A stretch of DNA of 60,958 bases, counting the filler. It is 12 parts of 12 records of this genome, joined end to end, with 100 filler letters (N's around TTAATTAATTAA, not from the genome) between each part and the next. Parts side by side here need not be neighbours in the genome. Positions count along the whole stretch, not along the records: positions 7,832 to 13,420 come from SRR15195285_6387; 11 more parts are not named here. One strand, given 5' to 3'. How positions within the stretch are numbered: position 1 is the stretch's first letter; every line of letters begins with the position of its first letter. The notes below the pieces were generated by a model that saw only the letters and a program-made list of their open reading frames with translations, did not search any database and had not been told where the DNA came from. Below are positions 2-29,936 of this stretch, in pieces. Both the position numbers and the translations under genes were made by a program.

Positions 2-2335
2 TGCACGACTTTTCACTCCGTAGGTAGAGGCAGTCCTGCTGCGAAGGCGTGCAAGGAAATGGCTCGGGGCGCCTGCTACGGTTGGGTCTTAGAAAAAGTA
101 GAGGGCGTCTCAGTGACAAGAATGTCGTTTGATGATGTACTATCTCTCATTCAGAAAACCACGAAGCGTCCGATGCAGCTGAGCCTGAGACCTCCATGCT
201 TTCTCAGTGTGCCGCTGAAGCCGCTGCTTAATGAGGATGGCACAGATATCGCAGACAGCGAACTAGCAACAGAAGGCCAAGATGAGAAGGGCCTGGGCGG
301 TTACTTCTTCAACAGCCTGATGCACGGGTTCTACCGCACGGTGCGTGAGACGACTCTACGGACTGGATATCACGGTGGTACGCGAATTGCTGGAGTACTC
401 GCAGCAGGCAGTTTCGTCGAAGTGATTGAGAGTCGTGTCAACTCGATGGGACACACGCGAATGCTTTGCATCAGCCTGGGAGGAGATGACAACGACGAAG
501 GAAAAGGCGTACAAGGCTGGGCGAGCCTGTACGCGCGTGATGGTCACCGGCTGCTCCGTGAACAGAACGCGCAGGAGATGAGGGATCGAGACCACATGGA
601 ACACAACGCGTTCTTGATTGAGGAACGATCAAGCCAGCGTGAGCAGACGAAGGCGGCGAACCATCTCCAGGCGCGAAAGATGGCTGGTCAGAACCCGCTT
701 GAGATGCGAATGTGCACTGCAGCGGCTAATGGGGATGCAGGTTGGGTCTTGGAACAGCTTCAACAAGGGGCGACTGCCGACTGCTTGGATTCGAGCGGCT
801 GTACGCCCATGATGCGGGCGGCTGAGAACGGTCACGCCGAAGTTCTGAAGGCGATGTGGCAATACGGGGTTGACCAGCAAAAGCACCTACTGCTGAACGA
901 AGTTGGCGAGGGTGGAACGGCGTTGGCGATGGCTACGACAAACGGACACCACATAGCCGCTGCAACGTTGCTGAGATATCGAGCTGATCCACTGGTCACT
1001 GATGGAAACGGGATCAGGCCAATCGATATCGCTCGAAAGATGCAGAATGATAAGCTTCTACGAATGCTTCAGGAGGCCTCAAACAGTGCAAAAATAGACC
1101 TGTCGCGACGACACGCGAAGGAATCGGTCCGAATGGCGGCGATGCACACCTTCACTCCGCAAATAATGCGGCAGGTCGCTGAGGCTTGTGATGACCTTCA
1201 TGCGGCGGTCTTTTCTGGCAACGTTCGTGCCACGATAAATGCGATCGGCACGCTGCAAAGTTTGGATAGCACGAATGGCATCAATCGTCCTGATAAAAGG
1301 GGCAGCATTCCCTTGGCTAAAGCTGCAGGGGCTGGCAAATGTGCAGTTGTCGGCCTCCTTCTGGCACACAAGGCCACAGTGGATGCGCCCAACGCATATG
1401 GCGAGACCGCTCTGTCGATCGCGTGCTCAAATGGACAGGTTGCTGCTGCCGGTTTGCTTCTGCGAGCTGGTGCAGATCCGAGTCGTGCCCTGCACAGCTT
1501 ATCTAGACACCTGACAAGCGTCCATTTAGCCAATCCGAGACTCTCATATAATCGACAGCATATGGCACTCGATAAGGAAAAGGCGGGTGGTGCTGGTTGT
1601 CAGCTGCTTCTTCACAAAGCATTTCTGGCGAGGAACGTTGTACAGTCCAACCATAAAATTGGCAGGAAGCCCACAGGAATTTCGCCAATCAATGTCGATG
1701 CATGGACCGGCGGCGGCATCCCTGGTGATGAGATGTCAGTCAAACGCAATGGTGTGCCCGGTCCAATCATCCAGACCAACCCCGCTGCGCTTGCGCTGGA
1801 CGGACAAGCGGCAGTCAACGACCACGCTATCAACAACGGCGCTGGTCAGCAACCACTAACTAGCTCAACGTCGACCAAGAAGAGAGGCCTGCGACGGCGT
1901 GCTGCTCCGGCTGCGGACCAACTTCCTGACACGAGTGCTGACCTGTCAGTGGTCGCTGAGGTCACCGAGCAGACCGAAAATCCTCTGGCTTCTTCGTACA
2001 CGAACAGCAGCGTTGCCTCACCGATAGCAGACGGCCACACGTTTGACGTGGAAGAGGCCGTTCTTTCTTCGAAGAAAACACGAGGCAAGAAGTGGACAGG
2101 AGGACTCAAGCGCCGACGCAAGGAAGCAGGAAAATCCGACAATGGGCAGCAGCCAGGAGGGTTGGTTGACACAGAGGAGTACTCCCCTCTGCCTCACGAC
2201 GGCTCCAGCGCCGTGGTGGGTCAAAGCAGTGCAGTAGATGGAGCGGACGAACTTGCAGCTATCGAAATCCCTAATGACGACGACTTCGAGCTCGGTGACG
2301 ACAGTACAGCGGAGCAGATAGGGGACTTACTGTAG
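2..2335 (+). CDS. PDZ + SH3-like + ankyrin-repeat protein, 5'-truncated by window edge
   Basis: Frame of ORF 59..2335 is open back to nt 2 (…GRGSPAAKACKEM…VEGVSVTRMSFDDVLSLI, PDZ-like). SH3-like segment (FVEVIE…GWASL); ankyrin repeats (GCTPMMRAAENGH, GTALAMATTNGH, GETALSIACSNGQ); disordered acidic tail. Confidence 0.75.
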   Translation, partial: CTTFHSVGRGSPAAKACKEMARGACYGWVLEKVEGVSVTRMSFDDVLSLIQKTTKRPMQLSLRPPCFLSVPLKPLLNEDGTDIADSELATEGQDEKGLGGYFFNSLMHGFYRTVRETTLRTGYHGGTRIAGVLAAGSFVEVIESRVNSMGHTRMLCISLGGDDNDEGKGVQGWASLYARDGHRLLREQNAQEMRDRDHMEHNAFLIEERSSQREQTKAANHLQARKMAGQNPLEMRMCTAAANGDAGWVLEQLQQGATADCLDSSGCTPMMRAAENGHAEVLKAMWQYGVDQQKHLLLNEVGEGGTALAMATTNGHHIAAATLLRYRADPLVTDGNGIRPIDIARKMQNDKLLRMLQEASNSAKIDLSRRHAKESVRMAAMHTFTPQIMRQVAEACDDLHAAVFSGNVRATINAIGTLQSLDSTNGINRPDKRGSIPLAKAAGAGKCAVVGLLLAHKATVDAPNAYGETALSIACSNGQVAAAGLLLRAGADPSRALHSLSRHLTSVHLANPRLSYNRQHMALDKEKAGGAGCQLLLHKAFLARNVVQSNHKIGRKPTGISPINVDAWTGGGIPGDEMSVKRNGVPGPIIQTNPAALALDGQAAVNDHAINNGAGQQPLTSSTSTKKRGLRRRAAPAADQLPDTSADLSVVAEVTEQTENPLASSYTNSSVASPIADGHTFDVEEAVLSSKKTRGKKWTGGLKRRRKEAGKSDNGQQPGGLVDTEEYSPLPHDGSSAVVGQSSAVDGADELAAIEIPNDDDFELGDDSTAEQIGDLL

Positions 2336-5091: not shown

Positions 5092-7731
5092 ATGGCAGCG
5101 TGGTGGGACGGGCTGGTACAAGTGAGCTCCGATGCCACGCAGTTGGAGCGGCTGCAGGCGCTGCGCGCAGCGGTGGCGGCCACAGCCAACGGGCGCGAGG
5201 GCGACGTAGACGCAGCCTGTCGGAAGTTGCTCATCGCGCTGCAGCAGCGAAGGGCGGACGGGACGGCCAGCGATGCGGTTCCGTACGCCGCTGTTGCTGA
5301 CCCGCTGGCGGAATCGACGAGCAGTGCTGCGCGATCCACCCTGCCTGCATGCGCTGGGGCGACGGAGCGGCACCAGTGGGCATGGTGTGATGCGGCTGTA
5401 AGTAACGCAGCGCAACCCAGCTACACTGACGAGCTGGCCAGGCCAAGCGCTGCAGAGGCGAATAGCACAGAGGCGAATCCCCGCGCGGTACCTGTTCGCC
5501 GAACTGCTGAGCTGCTCATCGGTGTTCTCGACGCGTGTGGACGTTCCGACGGGACTGGACCCAGCCAGCGCGATTCAAAAGAGCCGCTTCCAAACAAGCA
5601 CAACACCAGCGGCGGAATGTGCTGCGTACGGTATGGCAGTGGCATAGCCCCTTGTGTAATTGAGCAGCCGCGGCCCGAGCTGCGCGGCGCTTTGGTGTGG
5701 GTCCCCTGCTGGAACGTTGTCCGCCCGGCAGCAGTACGTGGGCAAAGAGACACTGTTGCGTCGTCCTCCTCATCGTGCTCGTGCGCACCAGCTTATATTG
5801 AAATACGTGACTTAGTGGTACTACGGGGCCGTCCCGCCAGTGATTGCAAGGACATGACGCCGATTCCAACTGTAGTATCAGTTGCGGCCTTGGAGCACAT
5901 GGAGAGTCAGCGTCGCCGAAGTACGTTGGCCCGTGTGCCTGCAATTGCTGTTCTTCCTTGCTTCTTTCTGCGTCAAGATCTGACGATCCGCCTGCCTGCA
6001 GAACGACGAGTGCACGAGGATGTGTCAGCGTTGCCCAGCGCGGGTGTAAGCCTCGTTGGGTATCTCACCGCCATCAGTCCGGTGCTATCGTTACGCAGCA
6101 ACGGTGCCGAACGCCAGGCCTTCTACGCGCATGTGGCAGATTCGCCGCCCTCCTCGTGCGGAGGACGAAGTGAGCTGATGGACACGGTTGCAGTGCTATT
6201 TGATGGCCCCGATGCAGCTGGCTGGCGGGCATTCTTGCAGTCACCGGCAAGCGAAATCAGAATCTGCATTACCGGGCTGTCTCGGACGCGGTTCCAAACC
6301 ACATCCATCAACCAACGGCTACTAGTCACATCTCCGAGCACGGCTGTCCGCACAGTTGAAAAAGAAGAGGCTATCGGTCTCTCAGCCACCGAACATTTGG
6401 GCAAAACGGCTAGTGGACCTCTCACCGAGGGGCGAGTACTGCCGGTACAACTGACAATGGATTTCTCACCTGCGACGGGCGCACCATTCAGTACTGAAGG
6501 GAGAGTGCTGCTGGTGACCTACCATGCCACGGTGGGGCATTACCGAGGGGACGGTGTCTGGGATATTTTGAACAGCAGCAGCAACACTGCAGATATAACA
6601 GCGCCAGTACAGCTATTTTTGGCGCAATGGTCGCGCAACGTGCTAGGTTTACGATACGGTGCTTCAATAATTGTACACAACGCACACCCTGTATATGGTA
6701 GGCGAGGCGATGTTGTGTGTGGTCTGGCGGCTTCAATCTACACATCTGTCGATGTTGTCACGTTTTCAACAACAGATTCACCTGCTCGCGTTCCAGGTGC
6801 AAGTTGTCTGTGGAAGTGGTACTGGCGTCACATGGTATGGGATGAGGTCATGTGGCTCATGTCCGAAGCATTGCCTCAATGCGACCGCAAATTTCGTGGG
6901 TTATGGAGTCGGGCAAAGCTACTCGCAGGTAGAAGTAAGGCCAGCACTGATCCTCTGTTGATGTACATGCTGCGATCGTTCGAGCGCAGCAGAGAACGGA
7001 TTGTTCACAGTGGTGCAGCTGGTCGATCAGACACAAAGTCTGCCGCCCAATGCTTGAAGCCAGAAGTGGGAGGTGACGTGACAAGTTTTTTTGCACAAGG
7101 TCTCGCGACTTGTCGACAGATGGATGGCAACACGCAGTATCCACGTGGTGGTGGCTGGGACCACAGGCCTTATATCGTAACAATGGCTCAGCTGGTAGTT
7201 GTCGCAGAAGCCATGGCTGCTGCAGTAGATTCTGAAAGGCAACAGAGTGGAGGTGATCTTGGCTGGGGGTATCGGCGCCTGAGTGCAGAGAAAGTGAAGC
7301 AGGCCTTGTCAGTTGTCGTAAGAGGCAAGTCCTCTGCGTGCGCCGATGCGCCACGCACACCGTCACTGGAGCCTCTGATTATCGGCAGATTGTGCGGGCA
7401 TGGAGTCACGGGAGGAATTATACTGACCGATGCTACCGGTCGAGTACCAGTGATATTTGATGGAACCAGTGAGCTGGAAGCCTGTCACTCTGAGCAGCTA
7501 TGGCTAGTGGGTTCGTTGTCGTTAGTAGTAGAGTATGCCCCTTCGTCAGCAACGCCGCTGACATGGTACTATGCGCTAGACTTTCCGTCGGCAACGTGTC
7601 TGTTTCAACGGCAGACTGGTGTGGCAGATGCCCGCGCTCAGCCTGCGTTTCCTTTTTCTAGCTGTGGCGACAGTGCTGCTGCAACAGCGAAGTCATCATC
7701 ACATGCAGCAGCAGCAGCAGCAGCAGCAGCA
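5092..7731 (+). CDS. CTC1: CST complex subunit CTC1-like (tandem OB folds), 3'-truncated
   Basis: Ordered motifs like animal/plant CTC1: LVWVPCWNVV…YIEI; SLVGYLTAISP; VAVLFDG…WRAFL…ITGL; LVTYHATV…VQLFL…GLRYGASIIVHNAH…VDVVTFS; LIIGRL…GGIILTDATGRVPVI. Runs into the (GCA)n tract at the contig end. Confidence 0.7.
7705..7731 (+). repeat. (GCA)n microsatellite at contig end
   Basis: Direct reading; encodes poly-Ala in the CTC1 frame. Confidence 0.9.
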
Positions 7732-7831
7732 NNNNNNNNNNNNNNNNNNNNNNNNNNNNNNNNNNNNNNNNNNNNTTAATTAATTAANNNNNNNNNNNNN
7801 NNNNNNNNNNNNNNNNNNNNNNNNNNNNNNN
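7732..7831. other. Artificial contig spacer
   Basis: 44N-TTAATTAATTAA-44N. Confidence 0.98.
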
Positions 7832-7954: not shown

Positions 7955-10246
7955 ATGGCGGCCTCCAGCGCCCAGCAGGACATCTTCGCTGCGCTGCGCG
8001 GCGGCGTGCGCTTCAAGTCGCAGGGATCGAACCGCTCCCGAGGCGCGCCGAAGAAGCGGAGTGCGGATGGCGGCAGCAGGTGAGCCCCTTGCTCTGCTCT
8101 GCGCTGCGTGGCCAGTGGTGCAGAGCTGGTGATTTGAGAGGCGCTGAAGCTTTTCCGTCGATGCGCGGTACTCGCTGAGCTTCTTGCTTTGGTGTCTGTG
8201 GCAGCAGCACCGAGAGGGAAGCGCCGAAGCCGCCGGCGTTCCACAGCCACGCGCACAGCGCGGAAGACCTGAACAGGCTGCGCAACGCACGGAAGATCAA
8301 GGTTAGCGGCGCAGACGCGCCCTCTATTCTGCCCGACCTCGCCGCGCTCGCGGCGGTGCCGGGCTGCCCGCAGCAGCTCCTCGATAACATCACCGCGATG
8401 GGCTGGACGACGCTCACGGACACGCAGATGCAGTCCATCCCGACACTGCTCGACGACCGCGACGTCCTCAGCTGTGCGCCCACTGGCTCCGGCAAGACGG
8501 GCGCCTTCGCGATACCGCTGCTGGTACGGTTGATGCGCGGGGAGCCGCGCCCCGGGACAGAGAGCAGCCCGCGTGCCATCATACTCGCACCGACGCGCGA
8601 GCTCGCGGCGCAGATCGCGCGCGAGACTGCGCGGCTGGCGAAGGATACGGGGATCGCGGTAAGGGCACTCGCCAAGGAAGACGACTCCTCGGTCTTCGCG
8701 GACTGTGATGTCCTCGTGAGCACACCTCTGCGTCTCTCGGCACTCGTGAGCGCACGGGCGGGCAGGCGGCTAGCGGCAGTCGAGATGGTGGTGGTGCGTC
8801 CATATAGCGCATAGCGAGCTCTCGCCCCTTGCCTCCCACCGTTTATATCGAGCGCGAGATGACGATCACAACCTCTATCTTAGGACACCTTAGTAAGGGC
8901 TCTCGCAAAGGACGCGGCATCCGCTCCTCTGCCTCCCTAATGTTAACAATTTCGTTATACACCTGATCCCGCTCTTCGGCGACGCCCCCCATAGGATTGC
9001 CACTGCCGGCCCTGTGCGGCGCGCCTCGCTCACGTGGACGCTGTTGCACGCTCGCAGCTAGACGAGGGTGACAAGCTGCTTGAGGCGGGCGAAGATGCAG
9101 TGTTCTTGCAGCAAGTTGACACGATCATCGATGCGTGCGGGCCAGCTGACGGCCTCGCCACGAAGATCAAAAAGGAGCAGGAAAGCAAGAAGCTGGACAA
9201 GAAGGCGAAGAAAAAGCAGGCTGAGGCGGAGGCACAACAGCGCGCTGCAAACCGGGTGCAGCGCTGCCTGTTCTCTGCAACACTCCCGCCGGCGGTGGAG
9301 GAGCTGGCGCGTTCGTTCCTGATCGATCCGCTCAGAATCACCGTTGGGCTGCGCAACGGGGCCACCACCACCATCAAGCAGAGGCTGAAGTACGTCGGAC
9401 GAGAAGGCGGCAAGCTGCTAGCAATGCGCCAGCTGCTGATGGAGGGCCTTCGCCCACCAATTTTGGTCTTTGTGCAGTCCAAAGATCGCGCTGGTGAGCT
9501 GCTTGAGGAGCTGCGAATGCGCGGATGGAAGGCGGACGCTATTCACTCGGGTCTGACGCAGGAAGCTCGGGACCGCGCAATGCAACGCGTCCGCCTCGGC
9601 GAGCTATGGGCACTAGTATGCACGGAGGTCCTAGCACGCGGCATCGACCTGAAGCACGTGCAGACGGTGGTAAACTACGATTTCCCACAAACGATGGTCT
9701 CGTATGTACACCGAATTGGTCGGACAGGTCGAGCAGGCAGAGACGGGCAGGCGATTACGTTCTTCACGGACGATGACAAAGAACAGATACGATCCGTCGC
9801 CCAGGTGAGACACACATACTTCACATCTGCCCAGACCCACCCTCAACGAGGACGACATACATATACGCTTACTAGATGATGACAAACATACAATAATACC
9901 ATCTTTCGGGACTGACTTCTGGGTTGATCCCCTCACTTGATGCATAAAATGTTTCGGCTGATACCACACCACCGGCGCGCCTTGCCTTCGTAGTGCCCAC
10001 CAACGGTTGCCTGACACTTCGCTGCTGCCATCTTCTCAGGTGATGAAGGATGCGGGCATGCCCGTGGAGCCGTGGATGCTTGAGGCGCCAAAGATAACAA
10101 AGAAGCGGCGACGAGAGCTAGCAAAAAGGCCTATCAGGCGCAAACCTGTCATCGATGGAAGGTCCGAAAGAAAAAGAGCACGAGTGCCGAAAGCGGCGAG
10201 GCCGGTCGATGCTGGCGACGACGACGGTGACGACGATGATGCTTAG
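7955..10246 (+). CDS. DDX52: DEAD-box RNA helicase DDX52/ROK1; exons 7955-8079, 8205-8793, 9058-9804, 10040-10246
   Basis: N-terminal DIFAALRGGVRF and LRNARKIKVSG; Q motif; APTGSGKT; PTRELAAQ; DEGD; SAT; PPILVFVQSKDRA; HRIGRTGRAG; VMKDAGMPVEPWM. GT-AG introns with matching phases. Confidence 0.9.
8850..8974 (+). ncRNA. Intronic box C/D snoRNA, U58/SNORD58-like
   Basis: In DDX52 intron 2. Box C ATGACGA 8859-8865, box D CTGA 8963-8966, terminal stem GAGCG/CGCTC, guide ATCTTAGGACACCT (8877-8890) complementary to conserved LSU rRNA AGGTGTCCTAAG. Confidence 0.75.
9871..9965 (+). ncRNA. Intronic box C/D snoRNA, snR39B/SNORD2-like
   Basis: In DDX52 intron 3. Box C ATGATGA 9876-9882, guide ACCATCTTTCGGG 9898-9910, D' CTGA 9912-9915, C'-like TTGATGC near 9937, box D CTGA 9958-9961. 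Guide is complementary to LSU rRNA CCCGAAAGATGGT. Confidence 0.85.
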
Positions 10247-27016: not shown

Positions 27017-29936
27017 ATGTCGGCCGAAACGTTGCTCGGCGGCCACAAGGATCGCTTTGATGCGGGGCTACGGGCGTTGCAGGGCGGGAAGAAGGCGGGC
27101 CCGCGGGAGCTCCAACGCATCCGTGAACGAGAGGTGGGTGTGCTATACCGCATACGCTATGTGCTGTGCCCCCCCTCCCCCTCCCTCTCTCTCGCATGCG
27201 CGGCCACACATGCTCCTCCCGCTGCGCTAGCTGTCCTTTCCATCGGGTTGCTGACGGGTGGGCACATCGCTGCCGCAGAATGAACGCTATCATGAAATTG
27301 AGCAGGCGCGGCAACGCGAAAAGGAGCGGGAGGAGCGCAACCGAGCTCGCGCGATGGCCAAGCTGACCGCTGCAAAGATGGCGGCGGAGACAGAAGCAGA
27401 GAAACAGCGCGAGCGGGAGCTGGCGGAATCGATGGGTATCGACGTCGACGCCGCGAACGAAAAAGAGCTTGCGGCGGCGATGGCCGGCCTGGGTATGAAG
27501 CCAGTCCAGACGGGACGCGCCCCACTACAGGGCATGGTCGAATCGGCACCGCGGGTCGACGTCGGCGACTTTGCAGCCAAGCGCGCGGCTGCGCTAGCCA
27601 AAGCGAAGATGCTCCGCGAGGAGCAGGGGGGCATCGGCGTGACGGTGAGTATGGGCGCGCGAGCGCCGGGGATCGGGAGTGACGCTGTAGGCGGAGACTG
27701 GGGCCGCTATGAGCGCGGGGAGACGCGCCAATCCACGGCGTCGCCCAAGCCTGTCAGGAGCGAGCCGAAGCGACTCATCGCTCCGAGAGGCGAAGAGCGC
27801 AGCACTCGCACCAGCCCGCGCACGGCCAAGCGCCAGAGTGCTGCGGCCGCCAAGGCAGCCTCTCAGATAGCGGATGCTAGGAGCATCCTTGCGCTGGACC
27901 CTTACGACAAAGAGGCCTCAGCCACTCTCAAGGCAGCCCAGGCAGTGCTTGAGCGCAGTGATACTCAGCCGGATGATGGTGTCACTGAGGCGTGGGGAGC
28001 CACTGATACAGCCAGCGTGCGCAAGCAGCGCCGAGTTGACAAGCGGGAGCGTCGCAAGAAACGCGAAAGACGTGGCAGCGGTCTGCGCGCTGGATCACAG
28101 TCCATGCCAATCCTTCCCTCTATGGCTTCGGAAGCGGACGATGTGGGTGAAGCCCAGGTTGCCCAAGCCTACGGCGGTTCGCCGAAGTCATCCGGCGGGA
28201 AGTCTCGGGCAAGAAAGCGAGAGCTGAAAGCTGCAAAAAAAGCCGCCGCTGTCGATTCGGCAGCGGCGGCTGCCGCGGCGCAACAGGCGAAGCTGGCGGG
28301 TGTAGCGGCGGCTGAGGCAGCAGCTACACGTTCACCGAAGCCGCAGCGTTCCGTGTTCGCTTCACGAGAGGAGCTAGAAGCCATGAAGCTCTCGGAGCTA
28401 CGCAGGCACGCCTTGCAGACAGCTGTAGATGAGGACCTATGCGAGGCAGCCCTGGATAGTGATGATCCGAAAGCAGAGATGGTAACGGTTGTGCTCGCGC
28501 ACACGGATGCCATCCACGCGAAGGAAGATGCAGCAATTCAAGCATGGCAGGACGCGGAGGACCGTTTGGAGGCGGAGCGGCGGGTACAGATGGAGATGGA
28601 GGCAGAGGCTGAAATGGCGGCTGAGCTGGCTGCAGAGGCAGCGCGTGAAGCTGCTGCACAGGAAAGAGCGCGACAGGAAGCCGAGGAGGCAGAACGTCGC
28701 CGGGCGGAAGCAGCCGCGGTAGAGGCATCGATGAAAGCACGTCGTGCCGAAGACCTGGAGCGGTTGCGGGCGATGAAACTGTCAGGTCTTCGGCGTCATG
28801 GTGTGGAAAGCGGCCTAGACGAGAGCCAGTTGGAGATTGCATTGGATGCCGAGGACCCAAAAGCAGCAATCGTAGAGATTCTCATCGATCAGCTTGACAA
28901 GGAATACGCAAGAGCAGCCGAGCTACAACGACAAAACTCCAGAGTCGAAAAGGAGTCAGGTACAGGAGGAAAAGCCATAGGAGCGCAGCGGTCAGGCGGC
29001 AAGGGTGATAGACGGAGGAAACAAAAGCAGCAGGCACCAAAGCAAAATCAAGCCACGGCTGGGCGTGCGCGGAGTTACAGTCCTGAATCGAGTATGGGAT
29101 CGCCAGTCCAGGATTGTAGTCACGGCGACGCAGACGAACCTGATCAGACGGAAAAGGAGTACCAGCCACGACGTCGGCAACCGTCTATGCAGCCCCAGGC
29201 TGCACGAGTCAAGACAGCGTTGTCCCCCCGTGTGCTTGAGGCCCGGCAGGAAAAAAGGAGGGAAAGGGAAAGAGAGAAAGAGCTTGCCAGGCGGAAGGCT
29301 GCGGCGACCGGATCGGGGCGTGGTGCTGGCGGTGCAATTCCGTTCAACCCGCCACATAGACTACCGACACGGACAATGCCCGAGGAAGACGAGAAACAGG
29401 AGCGCGAGGATGTCGGTGGTAGAGAGAACGCGAGCGATATCTCAGCAGCACGCGCCACTGCCAAGGCTGGAGCGGCCGTGACGATGACGGGGCAGGCTGC
29501 AAAAGGAGACTCCACTGCAGCCATGCGGAAAAAGCGCATGGCTGAGGTGCAGGCACGTCTTCAGGCAGAGGAGGTGAATCGCCAGTCACGATACCGCAAG
29601 GACAAGCAGCAGGGGACGTCGTCGCCGGTAGTGAAGCAGCGTGGTCATGGGCGTGCTGTAAGCTTTGGCAACGTGGAGCAGGCCACTAGCTCTAGCAGCG
29701 ATGAGGGAGCCCATGACAAAGACGAGCACGAGGGCGGCGGCGGTGATTCAGACCAACGTAGACCTTTCGTTGAAATCAAGCCTCGGCCAAAGCGAAATGC
29801 TGTAGAAGAGGTGCGACGTTACATGCAGGAGCGCGGGCCTGTCCAAAGCAGCTCTCGCACGATGTATGATGAGATCCTTCGGGAAGCCAGGGCGCTGGAG
29901 AAGATGCTGAATGACGATGATGTTGTCATATGCTGA
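27017..29936 (+). CDS. Charged coiled-coil/disordered protein with two copies of a ~40-aa helical module; intron 27134-27278
   Basis: 892-aa ORF plus a phase-0 upstream exon (…RIRERE|NERYHEIEQ); start codon uncertain (27005 or 27017). Confidence 0.7.

Follow-up and report, generated by a model that had tools for sequence, protein, structure and literature searches.

The question raised by this locus is whether an intron of a DDX52/ROK1 helicase gene contains a small nucleolar RNA (snoRNA) and, if so, to which family that RNA belongs. The DNA that we analyzed is a stretch of 60,958 nucleotides (nt), made of 12 parts joined end to end and referred to here as the window, and the original prediction, made from its letters, placed a box C/D snoRNA of the snR39B/SNORD2 type in intron 3 of the helicase gene. 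Our analysis makes it very likely that the segment from 9871 to 9965 on the plus strand, to which all coordinates below refer unless stated otherwise, is an intron-borne box C/D snoRNA of this type. The segment is supported by the match to a covariance model of homologues (R1, described below) and by the read-through open reading frames (ORFs) of relatives, in which the conserved block is at approximately 9876 to 9961. Boxes C, D', C', and D were all found at the places where they had been predicted within the 235-nt intron (9805 to 10039). Box C (ATGATGA, 9876 to 9882) corresponds to the RUGAUGA of the class and lies near the 5' end, and box D (CTGA, 9958 to 9961) corresponds to its CUGA and lies near the 3' end. 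The internal boxes D' (CTGA, 9912 to 9915) and C' (TGATGC, 9938 to 9943) are separated by a spacer of 22 nt. A spacer of 15 nt leads from box C to the guide core ACCATCTTTCGGG at 9898 to 9910, which is followed by a single A and then by box D'. The 13-nt antisense to large-subunit (LSU) ribosomal RNA (rRNA) that had been noted holds, since the complement occurs in eukaryotic LSU rRNA. The complete D' guide (9897 to 9910) forms 13 Watson-Crick pairs (9898 to 9910) and one G.U pair (9897) with the LSU rRNA sequence CCCGAAAGATGGTG, which exceeds the minimum of 10 base pairs (bp) beside D or D' that is characteristic of the class. Reading upstream from D', the nucleotides are A, G, G, G, and C; the duplex begins at position 2, and the fifth nucleotide, C9907, is opposite the G within CCCG of the complement CCCGAAAGATGGT, as the D'+5 rule had indicated.

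The 17-mer formed by the guide and D' is unique in the window, where 0.02 matches were expected at two or fewer mismatches, and the four-box layout occurred a single time in the window, both strands considered, and in none of 200 first-order Markov simulations. The description of the element as an AT-rich island was also correct: the G+C content of 9871 to 9965 is 41%, versus 50% and 62% in the two intron flanks and 57% in the window. The intron has 71 nt upstream of box C and 78 nt downstream of box D. The latter distance, to the 3' splice site, fits splicing-dependent processing, for which Hirose and Steitz in 2001 reportedly found an optimum of roughly 70 to 80 nt.

The host intron runs from GTGAGA to CAG at phase 0, and its removal was seen in the RNA evidence, which consisted of assembled contigs from RNA runs (X3, X10, and X12). 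Contig 23 of X3 begins at 10037 and is preceded by 15 letters that are found only at 9787 to 9801, which identifies the spliced junction, 9804|10040; intron 3 has therefore been spliced out of at least a part of the transcripts. The gene has DEAD and Helicase_C domains, and its closest named relatives are DDX52/ROK1, in agreement with the host that had been proposed. The best match of the N-terminal domain in PDB was human DDX52 (3dkp; 94.6 bits, with DDX23 next at 76.2 bits), and the named proteins among the best 120 full-length matches were all DDX52, ROK1, or RH57 (the plant protein), at approximately 45 to 58% identity.

In the mechanism that we propose, the snoRNA would be transcribed within the DDX52/ROK1 pre-mRNA and released from the spliced intron once this has been debranched and exonucleases have trimmed it to the C/D core bound by protein. 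An RNA of approximately 90 nt would be excised in this way and assembled into a small nucleolar ribonucleoprotein (snoRNP). Its D' guide would pair with the LSU rRNA sequence CCCGAAAGAUGGUG, and fibrillarin would 2'-O-methylate the G that faces C9907, the site that carries 2'-O-methylguanosine (Gm) 805 in yeast 25S rRNA.

Conservation in relatives and the source organism

Prokaryote-style gene calls, both in the window and in related contigs, extend exon 3 of DDX52 into the intron and thereby translate the snoRNA; in the window, this read-through ORF stops at the TGA inside box C (9877 to 9879). We used exon 3 together with the read-through tail as the search query, which retrieved environmental ORFs at 80 to 95% identity, and with the members of the 90% clusters there were 27 proteins with DDX52 exon 3 in total. 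The majority of them (19 of 27) end within the 5' portion of the intron and were uninformative, and eight reach the snoRNA. Three of these eight tails are window-like, with one difference among them that corresponds to a variant at 9859. The other five have 5' intron flanks unlike that of the window, yet show the same snoRNA translation. The flanks also differ in length: the distance from the splice site to box C is 64 nt in P0129 and 37 nt in P0130, compared with 71 nt in the window.

The tails of P0129, P0265, P0268, and P0130 all contain DDDKHTIIPSFGTD.., which is the translation of box C through D', and the tail of P0249 contains MMTNIQ, which is box C plus the spacer in another frame; box C is thus kept in all five. 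By tblastn, P0129 matched 9875 to 9934 at 20 of 20 residues. P0130, which at 80% exon identity is the most distant relative, matched 9875 to 9916 at 14 of 14 residues and, past a small length change behind D', 9919 to 9969 at 13 of 17 residues. The likeness of this relative to the window spans box C to box D and is lost immediately past the latter; P0130 retains box C' (HLMH) as well as box D (RL + A..), and one codon differs in the 14-nt region of the D guide (9944 to 9957). An alternative box C', TTGATC at 9924 to 9929, was rejected, as it is altered in P0130, whereas TGATGC is kept. The residues of these tails are not under protein selection, and their identity therefore reflects a near-identical RNA gene. 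At the level of sequence, a conserved block bounded by boxes C and D in the middle of a diverged intron is the strongest and the decisive evidence for the snoRNA. The relatives thus bear out the proposed presence of the snoRNA in DDX52 introns, as translated read-through ORFs show the same element in the same intron.

Two variants were observed in environmental contigs. The only one seen within the element, A>G at 9898, changes the outermost Watson-Crick pair of the guide from A-U to G.U, and pairing is kept. The other, A>G at 9859, lies upstream of the snoRNA and appears as T/A in the tails of cluster mates.

The same proteins bear on the source of the DNA. P0249, which has the source label Picozoa sp., belongs to the window protein's own 90% cluster, which suggests that the organism is a picozoan or a close relative, an uncultured marine eukaryote. 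In PMC8599508, Picozoa are described as uncultured and plastid lacking and are placed near red algae. Our literature search found no publication on both Picozoa and snoRNAs.

Family assignment and rRNA target

The predicted membership in the snR39B/SNORD2 family was supported by the guide rather than by curated scores. Rfam gave no support at its gathering thresholds: in the 281 nt around the element, RF00055 (clan CL00072, which comprises snR39B/SNORD2) reached 26.7 bits versus a gathering score of 43, with an E value of 0.0042, and TtnuCD19 reached 28.3 bits versus 70. The best subthreshold matches (RF00055, TtnuCD19, snoR29, and snR39) are nevertheless all box C/D families with a common guide and D' string in the same register, and this string is the consensus of RF00055, TtnuCD19, and snR39. 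In the RF00055 alignment, box C, the spacer, the guide, and D' were aligned at high posterior probability and the 3' half was unaligned. The score of RF01299 was unreported, as the best clan member alone is listed. An excerpt of Hoeppner and Poole (PMC3511168) assigns AtsnoR39BY (approximately RF00055), human snR39B, and yeast SnR39B to RF00055/RF01299 (CL00072), with one LSU Gm common to plants, human, and yeast, and places the 2'-O-methyladenosine (Am) guided by snR39/59 and U51/U32 two nt downstream of the snR39B Gm.

To obtain natural homologues, a metagenome scan with the 17-mer was carried out, and the resulting loci (at least 116, some of which hold two matches) were classed by script together with 5 loci on viral contigs. 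Among the matches listed, there were 15 antisense to ribosomal DNA (rDNA), 44 snoRNA-like ones in which the guide lies at box D, 20 in which it lies at D' as in the window, and 45 others, which were mostly chance matches in coding DNA. The five viral loci also look like chance matches in coding DNA. From 16 of the metagenomic D'-type homologues, with the window left out, we built the covariance model R1, which matched the window at 9870 to 9964 with 40.7 bits (E value of approximately 1e-6); the next match in the window had 12.6 bits.

No DEAD-box gene lies beside the snoRNA in any of the 121 loci listed (tblastn with three DDX52 exon translations, 0 matches). The homologue at L026 (approximately 383 to 465, minus strand) is on a GC-rich eukaryotic contig, about 33 nt past a GGTAAGT donor, and it follows an ORF that encodes tRNA-ligase anticodon-binding and DUF5915 domains, which implies a different host gene. 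L025, L038, L043, L047, L064, L096, L112, and L114 have a second guide that ends in TTCTGCAATT before box D, and L038, L096, and L112 contain two tandem copies each. We take this second guide to be a SNORD96-type guide to 5.8S rRNA, which would account for the name of RF00055 ("SNORD96 family"). RF00055 is the best Rfam match of the window RNA, which lacks the second guide that many metagenomic D'-type members have.

A duplex of 14 bp with the D' guide was obtained for each of the 15 eukaryotic LSU fragments, which had been preselected by the same pattern from among the matches listed, and all four rDNA loci that were tested were LSU_rRNA_eukarya in Rfam. The guide is directed to the conserved LSU G of CCCGAAAGAUGG, the equivalent of yeast Gm805, and both the string and the register are the RF00055 consensus; the assignment of the site to the Gm805 equivalent rests on the literature, which ties the clan to this conserved Gm. 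In yeast 25S rRNA, Gm805 is assigned to snR39b and Am807 to snR39/snR59. Other complementarities were not convincing. Nine nt at 9870 to 9878 have a complement in a conserved part of the LSU in 8 of 15 loci, which is at chance level for the size of the search and overlaps box C. The guide is complementary over 8 bp to the beginning of exon 4, a match noticed by eye that is likewise at chance level. The last six nt of the D guide (TTTCGG, 9952 to 9957) repeat the end of the D' guide and would set the A two nt past the target G opposite position 5, the register of the neighboring conserved Am. With only six contiguous pairs this is too short for a working guide, and the repeat may be a relic or due to chance. 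Among the loci listed, none had a guide in the register of the Am site.

Among known systems, vertebrate SNORD2/snR39B (chicken GGgCD34; RF01299) is likewise a box C/D RNA with its guide upstream of D' (the "5' guide" of the chicken table), and it addresses the same conserved G, two nt before the A of U32/U51 (28S-G1457 and A1459 in chicken). It is also intronic in a DEAD-box helicase gene; however, that host is EIF4A2 (intron 3, in chicken and in 84 of 109 vertebrates), not DDX52. The two intron positions do not appear to be homologous in the helicase fold, as the one described here lies past motif VI, near the C terminus. Yeast snR39b (Gm805) and Neurospora CD47 (26S-Gm785) have the same target site as the window RNA. 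CD47 is intronic as well, but its guide is upstream of D and not D', the arrangement of the 44 guide-at-D matches, whereas yeast snR39b is an independent gene. Tetrahymena TtnuCD19 (RF02295) contains an identical 20-nt guide and box string, but at the 3' end beside box D. The gene organization of snR39B varies, with independent genes in yeast and Plasmodium, an intronic gene in human, and clustered genes in Arabidopsis.

These comparisons agree with the suggestion that DDX52 is not known as the host in vertebrates or yeast, and no report of DDX52 as a snoRNA host gene appeared in the excerpts returned by a literature search on DDX52, snoRNA, and host gene. As excerpted, PMC3511168 states that orthologous snoRNAs shift between host genes and that ancient host associations are unstable; the association of SNORD2 with EIF4A2 is stable within vertebrates. 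DDX52 as a host is new but unsurprising. ROK1/DDX52 is a ribosome biogenesis factor, a helicase of the small-subunit (SSU) processome, and it therefore fits the usual pattern of broadly expressed, translation-related host genes.

Observations against the assignment and alternative explanations

Several observations weigh against reading 9871 to 9965 as a functional snoRNA of this family. The short terminal stem that joins the 5' and 3' ends in the class was not found beside boxes C and D: the immediate flanks gave +2.1 kcal/mol, and wider flanks were no better than shuffles. In the 16 metagenomic homologues, on the other hand, the terminal stem is present and covaries, and 68.8% of its cells pair in the proper register. 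The fold of the element was no more stable than that of shuffles (z of +0.69). SnoRNAs without a terminal stem are reportedly known from work of Darzacq and Kiss in 2000, and C/D RNAs usually show an unremarkable fold stability. For the window as a whole, the E value of RF00055 was 0.91, in addition to the missing match at gathering scores, and the R1 score came from the 5' half of the element, with box D misaligned. For the D guide, the 15 partial LSU fragments contained no conserved complement that reached 9 bp; its best complements there were rich in G.U pairs or confined to single loci, and this guide is probably idle or has a target outside the fragments examined. RNA contigs X10 and X12 run straight through intron 3 and may represent pre-mRNA or DNA; the ends and level of an RNA are not readable from contigs. 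Finally, the target was derived from the LSU rRNA of other eukaryotes, and the conservation in relatives from translated ORFs and not from DNA.

Some of these observations are what a decaying snoRNA copy would show, that is, a passenger of the intron that no longer forms a stable snoRNP, while another copy in the genome does the work. The missing terminal stem in contrast to homologues elsewhere, the orphan D guide, the RNA contigs that gave no processed RNA, and the subthreshold Rfam scores all point in this direction. Nevertheless, we consider such a copy very improbable. Its boxes and D' guide would not be expected to persist unchanged in five relatives while the intron flanks diverged in both sequence and length, and the sole polymorphism seen within the element preserves pairing. 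The element is also in sense orientation at a favorable distance from the 3' splice site, and the window of 61 kb contains no second copy of the guide.

Another possibility is that the block acts mainly in cis on the splicing or expression of DDX52, as described for SNORD2 in EIF4A2, with any guide activity secondary. According to an excerpt of PMC10324135, human SNORD2 pairs with its host intron and thereby hides the branch point. The two contigs that retain the intron are compatible with such a role, and in a retained intron translation would stop at the TGA in box C. However, we detected no significant pairing of the snoRNA with the rest of the intron, duplexes of the flanks did not surpass shuffles, and the intron sequence around the block is not conserved in relatives. 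A primary role in cis would also leave unaccounted for a perfectly kept 13-nt rRNA antisense in the correct register, and we regard it as very improbable. That short motifs have merely clustered by chance in an AT-rich part of the intron is a practically negligible possibility. Although each box is just 4 to 7 nt and the whole-window E value of RF00055 is high, the unique 17-mer, the simulations of the four-box layout, the R1 match, and the conservation in relatives have already refuted it. An intron-borne snoRNA with a working D' guide remains the reading that we prefer.

Host gene, intron 2, and significance

The present model of the host gene comprises four exons and 555 residues. Exon 1 (7955 to 8079) starts with the ATG at 7955 and was defined by its reading frame and the GTGAGC donor at 8080, and intron 1 (8080 to 8204) was placed from the sequence. 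Exon 2 (8205 to 8793) contains the DEAD domain (Pfam E value of 4.4e-25) with motif I, GSGKT, and it was this exon that gave the PDB match to human DDX52. Intron 2 (8794 to 9057; GT..AG) is supported by an X3 RNA contig that joins 8792 to 9057, with the cut at +1. Exon 3 (9058 to 9804) includes motif II, Helicase_C (Pfam E value of 6.9e-29), and motif VI, and its homologues are named DDX52/ROK1. Exon 4 (10040 to 10246) follows in frame, is covered by RNA contigs, and ends with the stop codon at 10246. The numbering of the host intron as intron 3 is right under this model, in which introns 2 and 3 have RNA support. Its description as long was correct as to the 235 nt but is relative, as intron 2 measures 264 nt.

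Additional observations were made in and around the gene. Motif II of the helicase is DEGD instead of DEAD (9058 to 9072, plus strand), and this is kept in all aligned relatives. A run of N at approximately 7730 to 7831, read as an assembly gap and with GCT/CTG-type triplet repeats on both sides, lies just upstream of the DDX52 start. Elsewhere in the window there is a CLASP-like ORF, the relatives of which are all environmental proteins, and Pfam searches with further ORFs yielded no taxonomic marker. At 28209 to 28271 on the plus strand, Rfam gave a subthreshold match to the Pseudomonas sRNA P17 (33.2 bits versus 45; E value of 0.0002), and the opposite strand also matched, more weakly; this is probably a palindromic or low-complexity artifact.

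Intron 2 contains a candidate for a second C/D RNA at 8850 to 8974 on the plus strand, with a variant box C (ATGACGA, 8859 to 8865), a box D (CTGA, 8963 to 8966), and a flanking stem of 8850 to 8857 with 8967 to 8974, in which 7 of 8 positions pair. Two such arrangements of boxes C and D with a stem were found in the window in all, and the other one, on the minus strand at 7638 to 7699, is probably due to chance. Conserved blocks of the intron 2 element recur as translations in the read-through heads of P0128 and P0130, which are unlike it past box D. The block LGHLSKGSR is identical at 9 of 9 residues, GRGIRS at 6 of 6, and NVNN.VIHLI at 9 of 10 in P0130 and 8 of 10 in P0128. The head of P0130 starts with MMTT, which implies a canonical ATGATGA there. 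The candidate had no match in Rfam and no target in the partial LSU fragments searched. Intron 2 thus probably contains a second, orphan C/D RNA. A parallel exists in the marine picoeukaryote Ostreococcus tauri: in the excerpted text of PMC7671301, Ot-CDsno90/91 occupy consecutive introns of a protein-coding host, one snoRNA per intron, as introns 2 and 3 would here. That host is a nucleoporin gene, the snoRNAs are different ones, and their expression was shown, whereas the two elements of the window are known from sequence.

We tentatively put forward, as a possibility that is rather doubtful at present, that the Picozoa-like DDX52 is a stable host of two snoRNAs, namely, the snR39B/SNORD2 orthologue in intron 3 and a lineage-specific RNA with a variant box C and no recognizable rRNA target in intron 2. 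If this were true, the supply of an SSU-processome helicase would be coupled to that of guides for LSU modification, and regulation of the host in cis would be possible, as with SNORD2 in EIF4A2.

The practical value of these results lies in annotation, as gene callers now translate the snoRNA as the tail of a helicase ORF, and snoRNA-derived tails are thus present in public protein sets. The element is genuine, but it is an ordinary member of a family that is known throughout the eukaryotes, and it changes no concept. It adds one more case of host gene turnover beside strict guide conservation, in line with the "constrained drift" view in the excerpted text of PMC3511168. It is seemingly the first snoRNA described for Picozoa, and it indicates that a Picozoa-like lineage has retained, in another host gene, the guide for an LSU ribose methylation that ranks among the most conserved.

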